Source: an uncultured Bacilli bacterium (lineage in GTDB: Bacteria > Bacillota_I > Bacilli_A > RF39 > UBA660). Taken from it: DNA of 64,000 nucleotides. The notes beneath the pieces are model-generated. The model was not told the origin of the DNA. It searched no databases and saw only the letters and a list, made by a program, of their open reading frames with translations. Positions within the stretch are counted from its first letter, which is position 1, and each line of letters opens with the position of its first letter. A program made the translations under genes and the position numbers. The DNA is taken from the NCBI GenBank assembly GCA_944363715.1, contig CALVUX010000002.1, positions 22,157-86,156 on the forward strand, given 5' to 3'. Of the stretch, positions 22,604 through 29,396 are shown piece by piece.

Positions 22604-22639
22604 TTGTAAAATATAAAAAAATAGCTTATAATACACTTA

Positions 22640-22866
22640 AATGCGATTGATATTCAAAGAGTACATATAAAGTATTAACAGAGAGTTAATGGTTGGTGGA
22701 AATTAACAATATGATATATGGAAGGTAGTGAATAGAGCAGGGTTTCTGAAATAATAGTAAGTTACCACGGTATGAGTCCGTTATCAATAATAAGATAGTT
22801 TAATAACTATAAATTAAGGTGGTACAGTGTAGGTTATCTATGCCCTTAAGTTATAGTTATTTTTTA
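22640..22866 (+). promoter_or_regulatory. T-box leader, specifier GUA (Val)
   Basis: UGCGAU start; specifier loop 5' AAGAGUA / 3' GAAGGUAG next to the lower helix UAUUCA/UGAAUA; AG bulge AGAGAG; distal loop GGUUGGUGGAA; T-box AAUUAAGGUGGUAC. The terminator AACTATAAATTAAGG/CCTTAAGTTATAGTT is followed by a T-run. Confidence 0.85.
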
Positions 22867-22882
22867 TTTTAAGGAGGAAGCT

Positions 22883-23332
22883 ATGAAAATAGGAAAAGTC
22901 GTCATTATTCCAGATGAAGAACAAATTTTAAATGATAAATTTGAATTTGATGTTATGGATGAGAAGGGGCATGTCATGGCTTATCAAGAGTTTTCTGATA
23001 AGTATAAATTAGGTTTTAGATTTTCTTTAGATGATTCACAACAGGTATCTTTATCTATTGCATCAATTGGACATTTTACATATAAAACGGAAGATAATGC
23101 TGGTCTTTTAGTATTTTATCTACCACAAGATATTACGGAAAGACAGTTAACATATTTTCAGAATAATTTTTTTGATTTTAGTAAATATAAAATGATAGGT
23201 GCTTATAGTTTAATTGAAGTAGATGATAAGGTTGTTTCTAAAGAAGTCGAAGGACTTAATAATATTAATCAAGAAATGATTAAAAAGTATAATAGTACTA
23301 AAAAGAAGGAGGAGAAAGGTCATGTTAGATAA
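22883..23332 (+). CDS. Hypothetical 149-aa protein, first gene of the T-box/valS transcription unit
   Basis: Strong RBS AAGGAGGAAG. Its end overlaps the valS start by 11 nt. No recognisable domain. Confidence 0.65.
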
Positions 23333-25859
23333 GAAATATAATCATAAAGAAGTAGAGAAAGATAAGTATAATGAATGGGTAAATAAAGGTTATTTTAAAG
23401 GCGATAAAGATAAGAGTAGAGAACCTTTTTGTATCGTAATACCACCACCTAATGTTACTGGTAAATTACATTTAGGTCATGCTTGGGATACAACGCTTCA
23501 AGATATTATTATTAGATATAAGAGAATGTGCGGGTTTGATGCTTTATGGCTTCCAGGAATGGATCATGCTGGTATTGCAACACAAGCGAAAGTTGATAAA
23601 AGATTAAGAGAAATGGGAATTAATCCTCGTGGTATATCTCGCGATGAATGGTTAGAACATGCTTGGAGTTGGAAAGATGAATATGCTACTACTATTCATG
23701 AACAATGGGCTAAACTAGGTCTTAGTCTTGATTATACTAAGGAAAGATTTACTTTAGATGAAGGACTTAGTAAAGCGGTTAGATATGTTTTTGTTAAACT
23801 TTATGAGAAGGGTTTAATTTATAGAGGAGAGAGAATTATTAACTGGGATCCAGTACAAATGACTGCTTTATCAAATGAAGAGGTTATCTATAAGGAAGAT
23901 AAGGGAGCATTTTATCATATTAAGTATTATATAACTGGCACAGATGAATATTTAGATGTTGCAACAACTCGTCCTGAGACTTTATTTGGTGATACTGCAG
24001 TTGCAGTTAATCCAAGTGATGATAGATATAAACATTTAATTGGTAAGACAGTAATTCTTCCTATTGTTAATAAAGAAATACCTATTGTAGGAGATTATCA
24101 TGCTGACCCAGAGTTTGGCTCAGGTATCGTAAAAATAACACCTGCCCACGACCCCAACGACTATGAAGTAGGGATGAGACATAACCTACCTCGTGTTGTT
24201 GTTATGAATTTAGATGCTACTATGAATGAGAATGCCCCTGGTTATGAGGGAATGAGTCGTGAAGAGTGTCGTGAAGAATTAGTAGAAGATTTAAAGAAAC
24301 AAGATTTATTAATTAGTATTGAAGAAATGACCCATAATGTAGGACATAGTGAGAGAAGTGATGCTGTAGTTGAACCAACTCTATCTAAACAATGGTTTGT
24401 TAAGATGAGACCTCTTGCAGATAGAGTGCTTGATAATCAAAAGAATAAAGATACAAAAGTAAACTTTGTTCCAGAACGTTATGAGAAAACAATGAATCAC
24501 TGGATGGAAATTACCTATGACTGGTGTATTTCTAGACAATTATGGTGGGGTCATAGAATCCCTGCTTGGTATAAAGACGATGAAGTTTATGTTGGAATGG
24601 ATGCACCTGATGGTGATGGATGGGTTCAAGATGAAGATGTACTAGATACTTGGTTTTCATCTGCATTATGGCCTTTTTCAACATTAGGATGGCCTGAAGA
24701 GACTGATTTATTTAAGAGATATTATCCTAATAATGTCTTAGTAACTGGTTATGATATTATTCCATTCTGGGTTAATCGTATGACTTTCCAAGGTTTAGAG
24801 TTTACTGGTAAAAGACCATTTAAAGACTGTCTTATCCATGGACTAATTCGTGATAAAGAAGGACGTAAGATGAGTAAGTCTTTAGGTAATGGAGTAGATC
24901 CTATGGATGTTATAGATGAGTATGGTGCAGATAGTTTGAGGTTTTTCTTAACTACCAATACGGCTCCTGGAACAGATTTAAGATATGATGAAGAAAAAGT
25001 TAAATCTACTTGGAACTTTATTAATAAATTATGGAATGCATCTCGTTATGTTTTAATGAATCTTGAAGGTATGAAGACATCAGGATATGATTATCAAAAT
25101 TTAAGTAAAGCTGATAAATGGATTTTAACTTTAAAAAATAATTTAATTAAAGATGTTACTAAAAATATGGATAGTTATGACTTCCATAATGTTGGTAATA
25201 TGTTATATAAGTTTATTTGGGAAGACTTTTGTGATAACTATATTGAGTTAAGTAAAGCGAATATGAACGATACGACTAAGAGTGTTTTACTTGATGTTTT
25301 AACAACAATCCTTAAATTACTTCATCCATTTATGCCTTATGTAACAGAAGAAATTTATTCTATGTTACCATTTAAAGATAGTGAGTCTATTGTAATTAGT
25401 ACTTATCCTAAGTATGATAGTGAAACTGTATTTAATGAGGAAATGGAAGAAATATCTAAAGTTATAGTTGATTTAAGAGAGATAAGAAATTTAAAAGCTA
25501 CTAATAATATTAAAAAAGATGATTTAGTTATGTTTAGTACTAAGAGTGATTTAGCGTATATTTATAAATCACAGTTAAAGATTACTGATGAATTAATAGT
25601 TAAAGAAACTTTAGAAAATTATCAATCTATTAACTATAAATCTAGTTTAATTGATATTACTTATTTCTTTAAAAATGAAGTTAATAAAGAAGAGTTAGAA
25701 GAGAATATTAAGAAGTTAAAAGACTCTATCGAAAGACGTAAGAAGTTACTTAGTAATGAAAACTATGTTAATAAAGCACCTAAGAATATAGTTGACCTTG
25801 ATAGAGAAAAATTAATGGAGGAGGAAGCTAAGCTTAAGTTATTAGAAGAACAATTATAA
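23322..25859 (+). CDS. valS: Valine--tRNA ligase, bacterial type with C-terminal coiled coil
   Basis: [14 protein letters not shown] (HIGH), [12 protein letters not shown] (editing), [22 protein letters not shown], coiled-coil tail. Confidence 0.95.
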
Positions 25860-25869
25860 ATATAAATAC

Positions 25870-26092
25870 AAAGAACAAGAGGAGTAGATTAGTTAGTAGT
25901 TAGTAGAAATGAAAGGTCACTGGCTGAAAGCCTTTCTTAACGAAGAGTAATTGAAGGTAGCTTGGGAGTTTTGTATCTGAAATAATAGTAAGATATAGTG
26001 TATACCTGCATTAAAGGATTAAGGTAGTAGAAATACTATAAATTAAGGTGGTACCACGAGCAATTCGTCCTTTGGATAGTTGCTCGTTTTTT
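25870..26092 (+). promoter_or_regulatory. Second T-box leader, specifier GUA (Val)
   Basis: Lower helix CAAG/CUUG; specifier loop 5' AGGAGUA / 3' GAAGGUAG, identical to leader 1; shared CUGAAAUAAUAGUAAG. T-box AAUUAAGGUGGUACCACG. Terminator ACGAGCAA/TTGCTCGT followed by TTTTTT. Confidence 0.8.
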
Positions 26093-26195
26093 AATTTAGG
26101 GAGATGATAATAAATGAAATATATATTTAAAAGTGATTATGTACGAGTCATTATTCCTTTAACAATAAAATAATAAAAAAGAAAGGATGATAAAA

Positions 26196-28607
26196 ATGTT
26201 AGATAAAAAATATAATGCTTTAGAAAAAGAACAAAAATGGTTAAATTATTGGAAAGAAAATAAAATTTATGAGTTTGTTTCTGATAAAAGGAAAATATAT
26301 TCTATAGATACACCACCTCCAACAGTTAATGGTAAAATTCATATTGGTCATATATTTTCTTATTCACAAGCAGAAATGATTGCAAGATATAAGAGAATAA
26401 GGGGATATAATGTATTTTATCCATTTGGTTTTGATGATAATGGTCTTCCAAGTGAAAGACTAGTTGAAAAAGAACAAGGTAAGAAAGCACATGAAATAGG
26501 TAGAGAAAAGTTTTCAGCTTTATGCTATGAAACTACTGATAAATATGAAAGTGAATTTCAAAATTTATTTTCTCGTCTTGGTGTTAGTACTGATTGGAGT
26601 ATGCACTATAAAACAGTAAGTCCTTCTACTATTAAAATTAGTCAAGCTTCATTTCTTGACTTAATAGTAAAAGGACATTGTTATCATAAAGAAAGCCCTG
26701 CTTTATGGTGTAATGAATGTTTAACTTCAATAGCACAAGCAGAACTTGAAACAAAAACTATAAAAACAACATTTAATTATGTAAATTTTGAAACAGTAGA
26801 GGATGGAGAAAAGTTTACTATTGCAACAACTCGTCCTGAATTATTACCAGCAATTGTAAGTGTTTTTGTAAATCCAAATGATCTAAAACATAAACATTTA
26901 ATTGGTAAAACTGCACATATCCCTGTAATAGATGTAGAAGTACCAATAATCTCTGATGAAAAAGTTGCAATAGATAAAGGAACAGGTATTGTTATGTGTT
27001 GCACTTTTGGAGATCAGACAGACATTGAATGGTGGAAAAAATACAATTTACCTTTAAAATATATTTTTACTGATGATGGAAGAATAATAGATTCTATTCC
27101 TAATTATGGAGGAATGAAAATAAAGGAAGCAAGAAAAAAGATTGTTGAAGATTTACAAGATGCAGGTTATATAGTAAAAATAGAAGAGTTAGAACATGAA
27201 GTGCAAACTCATGAGCGATGTGGTAGAGAAGTAGAATATACTGTAATGAATCAATGGTTTATTGATATTATGAATCATAAAGAAGATTTTTTAAGAATTG
27301 GTAAGGAAATCAATTGGTATCCATCACATATGCATAATAGATATGAAGAATGGGTAAATAATATTGCATGGGATTGGTGTATATCTCGTCAAAGATATTT
27401 TGGAGTTCCATTTCCAGTATGGTATTGTAAAGATTGTGGTGAGCCAATATTTGCTAAAAAGGAACAATTACCAGTTAATCCTCTTACTGATAAACCATTA
27501 GAACAAGAGTGTCCTAAATGTGGATGTAAGGAATTTGTTCCAGAATCTGATGTAATGGATACATGGGCAACCTCATCAGTAACACCTCTAATAAATATGA
27601 AATATGGCGAAAAAGATAATTATGAAGATATTTTAAAACCAATGAGTTTAAGGGCTAACGCTTCAGATATAATTAGAACATGGGATTTTTATACTATTGT
27701 TAAGTGTTTTTATCATTTTGGTATAAGACCATGGGATAATATTATGATTTCAGGTTTTGCAATGGCTAATAAAGGAGAGAAAATTAGTAAAAGTAAAGGA
27801 AACTCTAAAGTAGAACCATTAGATTTGATTAATAAATATTCGGCAGATGTAATTAGATATTGGGCTGCTTCTGGAAGACTTGGAACTGATATAACATTTA
27901 ACGAAGAAACTTTATTACGAGGTAAGAAGTTAGTTAATAAAATTTGGAATGTTTCTAAGTTCATAGAAATGCATTTACAGGACTATGAAGATAAAGAGTT
28001 TAATGATTTTGAATATGTTGATAAATGGATATTAGGTAATTTCATGAAAATGGAAAAAGAATATATTAAATATTTAGATAATTATGAAATCGGTTTAGGA
28101 TTAAATATATTAGAAAAATTCTTTTGGAATTTCTGTGATAATTATATAGAGATAGTCAAGCATAGATTATATAGACCGGAAGAGTTTGGAGAAAAGGCAA
28201 GATATTCAGGACAAAAAACAGTTTATATGATTTTATATAAGTTATTACAAGACTTTAGTGTGTTTTTTCCTTATATAACTGAAGAAATATATCAAGAAAT
28301 TTATCATGATAATAAATCAATTCATTTAACGGAAATAAAACAATTTGATTATTCATTTGATAAAGAAGTAACTAATGGAGATTTAATGTGTGAAATAATT
28401 AGTGCAGTTAGAGGTGAAAAGTCTAATAATAATTTATCATTGAAAACACCAGTAAAAGAATTGAATGTAGATTGTTCAAGTTATATTAAAGAAGCGATAG
28501 AAAATTCAATAAAAGATTTTAAGGCAACATTATTTATAGATAATTTAACTATAAATGAAATAGATAATAATTATATAATTAATAAAATAGAACTTGATAC
28601 TGAGTAG
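26196..28607 (+). CDS. Second valine--tRNA ligase, archaeal/actinobacterial-like short type
   Basis: MLDKKYN..., TPPPTVNGKIHIGHIF (HIGH), ATTRPELLPA, WDWCISRQRYFGVPFPVWYC, a CPKCGC zinc knuckle, KISKSKGN. No coiled-coil tail. The start is probably ATG 26196 (the ORF opens at 26187). Confidence 0.8.
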   Translation: MLDKKYNALEKEQKWLNYWKENKIYEFVSDKRKIYSIDTPPPTVNGKIHIGHIFSYSQAEMIARYKRIRGYNVFYPFGFDDNGLPSERLVEKEQGKKAHEIGREKFSALCYETTDKYESEFQNLFSRLGVSTDWSMHYKTVSPSTIKISQASFLDLIVKGHCYHKESPALWCNECLTSIAQAELETKTIKTTFNYVNFETVEDGEKFTIATTRPELLPAIVSVFVNPNDLKHKHLIGKTAHIPVIDVEVPIISDEKVAIDKGTGIVMCCTFGDQTDIEWWKKYNLPLKYIFTDDGRIIDSIPNYGGMKIKEARKKIVEDLQDAGYIVKIEELEHEVQTHERCGREVEYTVMNQWFIDIMNHKEDFLRIGKEINWYPSHMHNRYEEWVNNIAWDWCISRQRYFGVPFPVWYCKDCGEPIFAKKEQLPVNPLTDKPLEQECPKCGCKEFVPESDVMDTWATSSVTPLINMKYGEKDNYEDILKPMSLRANASDIIRTWDFYTIVKCFYHFGIRPWDNIMISGFAMANKGEKISKSKGNSKVEPLDLINKYSADVIRYWAASGRLGTDITFNEETLLRGKKLVNKIWNVSKFIEMHLQDYEDKEFNDFEYVDKWILGNFMKMEKEYIKYLDNYEIGLGLNILEKFFWNFCDNYIEIVKHRLYRPEEFGEKARYSGQKTVYMILYKLLQDFSVFFPYITEEIYQEIYHDNKSIHLTEIKQFDYSFDKEVTNGDLMCEIISAVRGEKSNNNLSLKTPVKELNVDCSSYIKEAIENSIKDFKATLFIDNLTINEIDNNYIINKIELDTE

Positions 28608-28799
28608 GATTATTTGTGGTGACATTTATGATGACTTTTATAGTGACAGCTAATATATAATATGTTGGAAAATTAGAAGAACAATTATAGGTTCTTCTTT
28701 TATATATATGATTTAGATAAAATTGTCGAAAAAATTTTTTTCCTATATCTTTACTTAAATAAGCTGTAATGATAAAATTCTAGTATAGGAGGATAGATT

Positions 28800-29396
28800 A
28801 TGAAAAAAAATGGGAAAATAATTATTATTGTAGTAGGTATTATTATTGTAGTCGCTTTACTTATTTTAATTTATTTTAAAACTGCATTTATTAGTGAAAA
28901 CGAAGTAAAAGATATAGTTGCAGATAATATGAGTGTAAGTAGTAGTGATTTATACTTTGAAAGTATTGATTTTGAAATGGATAAGAGTGTCTATGAAGTA
29001 GAAGTTTATTATCAAAATAGAGATTATGAATATAAAATAGATGCTAAGGATGGAAAGATTATTTATACTGATTTTAATACTACTGATAGTATAACTAATG
29101 ATAATAGTAGTAATAACAATAATAGCAACAATAATTCTAATACTAATGGTTCTAGTAATAATGGAAATAATGCAACTACTGCAAGTATACCTCTTGATGA
29201 AGCGAAAAATATTGCACTTACTCATGCTAACTTAACTGAAGATGCTGTGCAGTTTTTAAGAACAGAGCAAGAGTATGATGATGGTGTTCTTGTTTATGAA
29301 ATTGATTTTACTCATGGTGACTATGAATATGACTATAAAATAAATGCTAATACTGGAGAGGTAGTTAGTTACGATAGAGATAGTATATATGATTAA
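28800..29396 (+). CDS. Membrane-anchored protein with two PepSY domains and an Asn-rich linker
   Basis: N-terminal TM; YEVEVYYQNRDYEYKIDAKDGKIIY and VYEIDFTHGDYEYDYKINANTGEVVS PepSY-like repeats. Confidence 0.7.
   Translation: MKKNGKIIIIVVGIIIVVALLILIYFKTAFISENEVKDIVADNMSVSSSDLYFESIDFEMDKSVYEVEVYYQNRDYEYKIDAKDGKIIYTDFNTTDSITNDNSSNNNNSNNNSNTNGSSNNGNNATTASIPLDEAKNIALTHANLTEDAVQFLRTEQEYDDGVLVYEIDFTHGDYEYDYKINANTGEVVSYDRDSIYD

Follow-up and report, generated by a model that had tools for sequence, protein, structure and literature searches.

An archaeal-type valyl-tRNA synthetase module, probably acquired, behind the resident valS gene of an uncultured gut Bacilli bacterium

The genome of an uncultured Bacilli bacterium, a metagenome-assembled genome (MAG) from chicken gut in 39 contigs with an estimated contamination of 4%, contains two adjacent genes for valyl-tRNA synthetase (ValRS), valS1 and valS2, with two T-box leaders, T-box1 upstream of valS1 and T-box2 between the two genes. 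Both lie in a stretch of 64 kb of this genome, referred to below as the window. Our reading is that T-box2 and valS2 form an acquired expression module for an archaeal-type ValRS, that the module sits as cargo at the 3' end of valS1 and would be gated in series with it, and that the gene it carries travels within the family; the probability we attach to this reading as a whole is roughly 0.78. In what follows G numbers denote genomes (G000 being the present one), L numbers denote loci of relatives, and C numbers denote contigs of G000.

Two synthetases of different lineages

The initial annotation proposed two ValRS genes of different descent, and typing against NCBIfam models, with cut-offs of 704 bits for the bacterial model NF004349 and 738 bits for the short archaeal-type model NF009687/PRK13208, bears this out.

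23322..25859, plus strand: valS1, resident bacterial-type ValRS, 845 aa (NF004349, 1111 bits)
26196..28607, plus strand: valS2, archaeal-type ValRS, putatively acquired, 803 aa (NF009687, 999 bits)

When the two models were applied to 14 control genomes (4 archaea and 10 bacteria), NF009687 passed in 4 and the bacterial valS model in 10, an agreement in counts only. The valS1 translation shows the HIGH and KMSKS motifs, is of the bacterial type (NF004349/TIGR00422), and ends in the coiled-coil arm Val_tRNA-synt_C (PF10458, residues 789-845); a domain search found no such C-terminal arm in valS2, so that the described difference between the two tails holds. The resident gene is 95-96% identical to the valS1 of sister species that lack valS2.

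The second enzyme, about 30% identical to the first, is, as had been supposed, of ValRS type rather than an IleRS or a LeuRS: it scores 408 bits on ileS and below 205 bits on the leuS models, and its closest solved structure is Thermus ValRS (1GAX, E 3e-94), ahead of IleRS (8e-68). Aligned with the Thermus enzyme it has HIGH (H-I-G-H), K-I-S-K-S, and the arginine and two aspartates of the editing site. Its start is placed at 26196 rather than at the 26187 given by the ORF finder, because a ribosome-binding site lies 7-8 nt 5' of 26196. The editing motif reads TTRPELL as against the bacterial TTRPETL, but TTRPE followed by leucine or methionine is the norm of the archaeal-type family (99 of the 109 representatives above 700 aa), and an editing-deficient valS2 was rejected on that ground. 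G027 (92% complete), G012 and G463 yielded no intact valS1, and valS2 therefore appears to be the sole ValRS of these genomes. We take valS2 to be a true ValRS that would charge tRNA-Val.

Substitution patterns show that valS1 and valS2 are both under purifying selection. Between G000 and the sister species G008, the ratio of nonsynonymous to synonymous divergence (omega) is 0.077 for valS1 at a synonymous divergence (dS) of 0.36, and 0.105 for valS2 at a dS of 0.18. In species without valS2 the omega of valS1 is 0.06-0.08, and the values for neighbouring genes are similar to those of both valS genes.

Two T-box leaders of the same specificity

That both genes have T-box leaders was confirmed with cmscan against Rfam RF00230 (gathering score 93 bits), which called T-box1 at 22637-22850 with 98.4 bits and T-box2 at 25862-26075 with 106.2 bits, each over model positions 1-219. 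Together with their terminators they occupy the following positions.

22637..22870, plus strand: T-box1 and terminator; specifier GUA at 22725-22727, UGGU bulge at 22820-22823, U-run at ~22860-22870
25862..26092, plus strand: T-box2 and terminator; specifier GUA at 25957-25959, UGGU bulge at 26049-26052

In each leader a terminator competes with the antiterminator and is followed by a U-run. The terminator of T-box2 (stem 26056-26087, U-run 26087-26092; fold -22.3 kcal/mol, z -3.5) takes up the 5' strand of the upper antiterminator helix. The corresponding part of T-box1 (22783-22880) folds at -21.9 kcal/mol with a z of -3.1. Its terminator is unusual in that it extends the outer antiterminator helix with the 3' strand of Stem III and leaves the inner helix uncontested; a Phe T-box elsewhere in the genome (G000:C7:4057-4261) has the same unusual layout and nearly the same 3' half.

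The 3' side of the specifier loop is GAAGGUAG in both leaders and can be read as GGU or as GUA. A GGU (Gly) specifier was rejected on the layout of the other T-boxes of G000, which is GAA-N-codon-purine (for example GAA-C-AUG-G before the MetRS gene metS) and to which the context GAA-G-GUA-G common to both leaders corresponds, on the valS2-linked leaders of other genomes, in which N is G, A or U and GUA is invariant, and on the UGGU bulge, which pairs with the ACCA 3' end of the single tRNA-Val(UAC) of G000, a tRNA with A73, both tRNA-Gly having U73. Judged by codon and by the UGGU/A73 match, both leaders are Val (GUA) T-boxes fitting tRNA-Val(UAC), and the shared specifier noted at the outset stands. 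The further claim that each gene lies behind its own Val T-box survives only in part: there are two leaders, but T-box2 is not an independent unit, the insert described below beginning at the leader's first base. T-box2 clusters with the valS2-linked leaders of other genomes and apart from T-box1, from which it follows that the two arrived together, leader with gene.

An insertion at the last codon of valS1

T-box2, a short upstream open reading frame (uORF) and valS2 (~25859-28672) form a 2.8-kb insert, best explained as horizontally acquired, at the last codon of valS1. Its boundaries were found by an exact repeat search, a terminator scan and a local alignment to the corresponding cassette of G019.

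25842..25858, plus strand: left copy of a 17-nt direct repeat, formed by the last valS1 codons
28608..28672, plus strand: promoter/operator remnant of an AlbA_2-like cassette (three GTGAC-type repeats), its ORF deleted
28673..28702, plus strand: right copy of the 17-nt repeat (28673-28689), native valS1 terminator hairpin (28675-28698) and T-run

In G030, where the site is empty, the repeat sequence is both the end of valS1 and the 5' half and loop of its terminator hairpin, and a PepSY gene follows 80 bp on; its counterpart in the window starts at 28800. The left copy of the repeat, now lacking the hairpin's 3' half, gives no fold (0 kcal/mol). The right copy forms the complete hairpin (-10.4 kcal/mol), which would now terminate the valS2 transcript. 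On either side the flanking genes are syntenic with those of sister species, the valS1 3' end is unoccupied in G015, G021, G030 and G032, and G008 has the same left junction as G000, with a repeat of 21 nt. The earlier suggestion that the second enzyme was acquired horizontally is thus supported both by an insertion with empty sites in relatives and by the mobility among hosts described in the next section. No recombinase is encoded between 25859 and 28800, two DNA runs gave neither reads nor contigs bridging the site without the insert, as excision would require, and repeats of 12 nt or more were absent from other loci of the resident valS/T-box/valS2 layout (L050, L048).

Other sister species have other cargo at this very nucleotide of the valS1 3' end. 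An AlbA_2-like gene of 446 aa, preceded by three 12-nt GTGAC repeats and with last seven codons that are the repeated valS1 end, is found there in G016, G019 and G034; in G006, G022 and G028 a gene for a 394-aa membrane protein is present as well as the AlbA_2-like gene, with three copies of the repeat; and G017 has a tyrosine integrase and a sigma-70-like gene, this integrase being the only one seen at the site. This survey of the genus shows the valS1 3' end to be an integration hot spot, and we infer that the array in the window is accreted and decayed integrative cargo. G028 also has a TnpB-like ORF at this position. Loci with such cassettes are L135, L137, L139, L140 and L150, in the gap between valS1 and the PepSY gene of sister species, and L041:5946-8668.

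Spread of valS2 among relatives

Within the genus sample of 37 genomes (36 sister species and G000), five contain valS2, and the valS2 type occurs in 78 of the 401 genomes drawn from the family, whose members are gut Bacilli with small genomes, with a patchy distribution within genera. Relatives of the gene were found in at least 583 species genomes, the best 80 of which are 79-96% identical and come from uncultured Bacilli of the gut of chickens, rabbits, humans and ruminants; the nearest representative outside the 50% cluster of valS2 itself is only 50% identical. How similar the valS2 of a genome is to that of G000 is unrelated to the similarity of its valS1: at L063 the valS1 fragment is 97% and valS2 82% identical to the G000 counterparts, and at L050 the figures are 64% and 87%. 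Between L115 and L117 there are no differences in 2379 nt of valS2 at a dS of 1.76 for the host valS1 fragments, and between L063 and L065 valS2 has a dS of 0.02 and the valS1 fragments a dS of 1.6. On such comparisons valS2 is a travelling gene that moves independently of its host.

Wherever it is found, valS2 is located at the resident valS, in several layouts. The order resident valS/T-box/valS2 is seen in G000, G008 and L050; in G461 and G462 a second archaeal-type paralogue precedes T-box and valS2; ORF149, valS2 and valS1 (ORF149 being the first gene behind T-box1 in the window) lie under a single T-box in L080, L088 and L111; at ten loci the first ~274 codons of valS1 are directly followed by valS2; and at most loci valS2 is alone behind a T-box. 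On our reading the native valS1 decays over time and is gradually replaced by valS2, and G000 and G008 represent the state in which both genes are intact and constrained.

Some of these loci have further features of their own. The archaeal-type paralogue of G461 and G462 (L130, L132) is ~830 aa long, 50% identical to valS2 and directly 5' of it, and with a bacterial-type valS1 on another contig G462 has three ValRS genes in all. Right behind the valS2 of G027 lies a group II intron (RF02005, 88.7 bits; L022:1143-1394) with a reverse-transcriptase ORF (L022:2-796).

A recombinase element that cuts valS1 in relatives

A second mode of movement is seen in genomes in which valS1 is split. In G013, G464 and G465 the C-terminal fragment of valS1 lies on another contig, where it starts at the same codon and immediately behind the gene for a 548-aa large serine recombinase. 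The recombinases of the three genomes are 67-100% identical to one another, and the host valS1 fragments are 42-63% identical to the valS1 of G000. Alignment of the attL/attR junctions of G012, G013, G464, G465, L063, L065 and L115 places the cut near codon 270; the junctions share an imperfect 21-nt repeat within the G-x-G-x-V-K-I-T-P codons and have the inverted arms typical of a serine-integrase attP. The same alignment gives the intact counterpart in the window.

24117..24143, plus strand: intact counterpart of the cut site, valS1 codons 266-274 (G-S-G-I-V-K-I-T-P)

On the 3' side of valS2 the element carries genes for an HTH_36 replication-type protein, Xre regulators, a PemK toxin, and SpaA or thioester adhesins. 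The N-terminal fragments of valS1 have an omega of 0.06-0.11 with saturated dS, and since omega is low in spite of that saturation they must have diverged within an intact gene, which indicates that the integrations are recent and independent. In this second mode valS2 moves as promoterless cargo of the recombinase element and is coupled to the T-box of the host. Decayed forms of the element were seen at L060, L107 and L069; at L060 the sole gene between valS2 and the valS1 C-fragment encodes a fused nitroreductase-YcaO protein of 714 aa (L060:13044-15188). The valS1 of G000 is whole and uncut, and the window is not an instance of a valS-splitting element; a search of G000 for a serine recombinase related to that of the element returned only homologues of 23-35% identity.

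A probable single transcript with two gates in series

The features that bear on expression of the pair, besides the leaders, are the following; promoter calls are consensus matches (-35/-10 scan) only.

22604..22632, plus strand: promoter-like site TTGTAA, 17 nt, TATAAT (consensus scan, 10/12 matches), just 5' of T-box1
22883..23332, plus strand: unknown ORF149 (149 aa, from the ORF list), first gene behind T-box1, its stop overlapping the valS1 start
26114..26173, plus strand: uORF of 19 codons with a good ribosome-binding site, between the T-box2 terminator and valS2

T-box2 starts 2 nt past the valS1 stop, which leaves no room for a promoter of its own, and a scan of the plus strand from 25418 to 26187 found no promoter site. 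At L058 and L066 a promoter of the form TTGAC(A/T)-17 nt-TA(TA/CT)AT precedes the homologous leader; in G000 and G008 the homology to these two loci begins at the first bases of Stem I, where the valS1 coding sequence abuts. For the unit as a whole, the one good promoter candidate is the site at 22604-22632. With the valS1 terminator split and the insert lacking a promoter, the simplest reading is that one transcript passes through both valS genes.

Such a transcript would start from 22604-22632 and run through T-box1, ORF149, valS1, T-box2, the uORF and valS2 to the old terminator at 28675-28698. Both leaders would bind uncharged tRNA-Val(UAC), and production of valS2 would require two tRNA-Val-dependent read-through decisions in series, so that little of the second enzyme is predicted under ample valine, and a steep induction upon failure of charging; both enzymes would be functional ValRS. 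Contigs from two RNA-seq libraries (X17, X18) match T-box1, ORF149, valS1, the 3' end of T-box2 and valS2 at 90-97% identity, with relatives or DNA as a possible source, and leave 25815-26036, the valS1/T-box2 junction, uncovered.

The first 12 residues of the uORF (M-K-Y/F-I-F-K-x-D-Y-V-R-V) are kept at L058, and its start is more substituted at L066 (M-N-I-I-Y-K-N-D-Y-G-R-V). ORF149 has no Pfam or NCBIfam match. Homologues were found 5' of valS1 in relatives, in many of which it is the conserved first gene of the valS1 T-box operon (for example L047:2920-3792); G008 has two copies in tandem, and in some genomes valS2 is inserted exactly between ORF149 and valS1.

Weighing the alternatives

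Several points weigh against an acquired and serially gated module. The 17-nt repeat was at first taken as a simple target duplication made by the arrival of valS2; this had to be revised, since an older AlbA_2-like cassette accounts for the right copy and for the 65 nt that precede it. The repeat therefore partly pre-existed as the end of that cassette and is not simply a duplication from the arrival of valS2. The mechanism of this insertion is deduced from the repeats and from relatives, the insert itself being devoid of a recombinase. The absence of a promoter within it is read from a consensus scan and a comparison with two relatives, and a weak internal promoter in the 3' end of valS1 could hide in so AT-rich a genome. 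The constraint on both genes over a dS of 0.2-0.4 argues that the two-gene state is maintained and not merely transitional. Lastly, the dS of valS2 between G000 and G008 (0.18) is half that of valS1 (0.36), and the cassette may accordingly have been exchanged between the two species after their split.

The explanation that comes closest to competing is a division of labour, in which valS1 does the housekeeping, valS2 is expressed as an emergency isoform only when valine or the charging of tRNA-Val runs severely short, and both genes are kept for that reason; service under stress had also been named in the initial annotation. A promoterless T-box2 in series behind T-box1 and valS1 is what it would lead one to expect; purifying selection acts on both genes in two species, and the resident valS/T-box/valS2 layout recurs with other resident genes (L050, G461/G462). 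Against this, valS2 is in other relatives the only ValRS, or shares a transcript and a single T-box in the order ORF149-valS2-valS1, so that a special role in stress is not intrinsic to the protein. The proposal overlaps with the acquired-module reading and departs from it only in the adaptive reason for retention; we regard it as possible, if tentative.

Two further proposals invoke selection by an antibacterial agent. One is that the valS2 lineage is sweeping by selection and not only by virtue of selfish vehicles, for example as an escape from a ValRS-directed toxin or antibiotic of the gut, and that the pair in G000 is a stable two-synthetase solution rather than a way-station; this we consider unlikely. 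The other, a shade more doubtful, follows the initial annotation in relating the duplicate to resistance against an aminoacyl-tRNA synthetase inhibitor: valS2 would be kept and spread as insensitive to a natural gut inhibitor of ValRS, in the manner of mupA/ileS2. Hosts with valS1 genes that differ by up to 58% share a single, almost uniform valS2 lineage (79-97% identical), and a sweep of this kind could mean strong selection; valS1 and valS2 are both retained under constraint; and the valS2 of L060 adjoins the fused nitroreductase-YcaO enzyme, which is of the azoline-forming kind. However, the window is without a biosynthetic cluster, the neighbours being PepSY, FAD/Rieske oxidoreductase and Clp-like genes, and valS2 scores ~200 bits on the models of the resistance IleRS MupA/MupB, whose cut-offs are 1900. 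The elements that integrate in valS account for the spread, and valS2 is a housekeeping enzyme where it is the sole intact ValRS, as in several relatives. We also know of no natural product specific for ValRS, and the suggestion of resistance is not upheld.

A drift of valS2 to another task (another tRNA or amino acid, or loss of editing) might be read from its low identity to valS1 and from the leucine in place of the threonine of TTRPET, but it is highly improbable given that this residue is the norm of the family, that HIGH, KISKS and the two editing aspartates are present, that the score lies above the equivalog cut-off, and that a Val-specific T-box is kept before valS2 in many genomes, with valS2 the sole ValRS in some relatives. 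Least probable of all is an assembly or binning artefact joining the valS genes of two organisms, for which the fragmented and slightly contaminated state of the MAG and the abundance of valS2-like genes in the habitat might speak: contigs from two other chicken-gut studies span valS1/T-box2/valS2 and cross both junctions (24521-26695 and 25650-26447, 97-98% identity), the sister species G008 shares the layout and the junction sequence, the flanks are syntenic with sister species, and the logic of repeat and empty site fits to a single nucleotide, so that the tandem layout is not an assembly chimera.

Other synthetase and tRNA genes of the genome

Two tandem MetRS paralogues of 544 and 559 aa, 44% identical, are encoded on the minus strand at G000:C7:67892-71570 with a Met (AUG) T-box between them (C7:69576-69811), and may be a second doubled synthetase in this genome. 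A further MetRS-like gene, interrupted by a single in-frame TAA, lies on a 3-kb contig (G000:C38:1472-3083) that has a partial T-box at its end; a pseudogene, a strain variant or contamination may account for it. ARAGORN also calls a tRNA with the anticodon CUA, labelled Pyl, at G000:C13:38585-38660 in this genome of 1.4 Mb; it could be an amber suppressor or point to recoding.

Significance and comparison with known systems

Neither a dual ValRS locus of this kind nor an element that integrates in valS turned up in a search of the literature. Genes for synthetases are the standard example of informational genes that are essential and supposed not to move, and their replacement by distant homologues is usually inferred only from ancient trees. 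At this locus and those of its relatives the native gene only, both genes intact, the native gene truncated, and the foreign gene only are all present in living gut bacteria, with vehicles and insertion sites resolved to the nucleotide, and the window preserves an intermediate, apparently stable stage in the replacement of an essential synthetase. The foreign enzyme would be plugged into host regulation in two ways, either by bringing its own T-box or by borrowing that of the host, and a mobile element may be able to use an essential gene as its landing site by carrying a substitute. For annotation this means that genomes of the family may hold one to three ValRS genes of different types and that truncated valS fragments in them are not assembly errors.

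Archaeal-type ValRS in bacteria is a known pattern, for which the NCBIfam model NF009687 was made. Second synthetases gained by bacteria include those of mupA/ileS2 and mupB, which are plasmid-borne resistance genes. They resemble valS2 in being divergent class-I synthetases acquired horizontally as a second copy; valS2 differs in scoring far below the cut-offs of their models and in being the sole ValRS of some hosts. As for the arrangement of the insert, integrative elements and their remnants accrete at the 3' end of fda in Streptococcus thermophilus (ICESt1/ICESt3/CIME). There, as at valS1, direct repeats of the 3' end of the target bound successive cargo, the integrase is often lost and relatives have an empty site, but the valS array has no integrase left and its cargo is a gene of essential function with its own riboswitch.

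Elements of the SXT/R391 type at prfC and dusA-specific elements re-express the gene that they cut (PMC8409611). Landing in a conserved housekeeping gene while its function is kept is common to these and to the valS elements, and in relatives of G000 valS2 is coupled to the host T-box operon. Whereas they contribute only a new promoter and some N-terminal codons, the valS element brings a complete enzyme of unrelated type, and in the window valS1 is uncut and the module lies behind the gene.

Horizontal transfer of aminoacyl-tRNA synthetase genes is said to have been treated by Wolf et al. in 1999 and by Woese et al. in 2000, and xenologous gene displacement in situ reportedly by Omelchenko et al. 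in Genome Biol in 2003. The valS locus is like such displacement in that a distant homologue takes the place of an essential gene, at the original locus and with the function unchanged. The classical cases, however, are ancient and completed, whereas the valS locus presents within one family all the stages together with the vehicles.

With regard to regulation, the nearest parallel is with thrS/thrZ and tyrS/tyrZ of Bacillus subtilis, in which second synthetase genes are reportedly under T-box control, from work in the Putzer, Grunberg-Manago and Henkin laboratories. In those pairs as in this one there are two synthetases of the same specificity with cognate T-boxes, and the second gene is turned on when charging is insufficient, which for valS2 is predicted from sequence. 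The Bacillus genes, in contrast, are unlinked bacterial paralogues, whereas valS2 is an archaeal-type xenologue inserted behind valS1, apparently promoterless, with two T-boxes probably in series on one transcript, and mobile between species.

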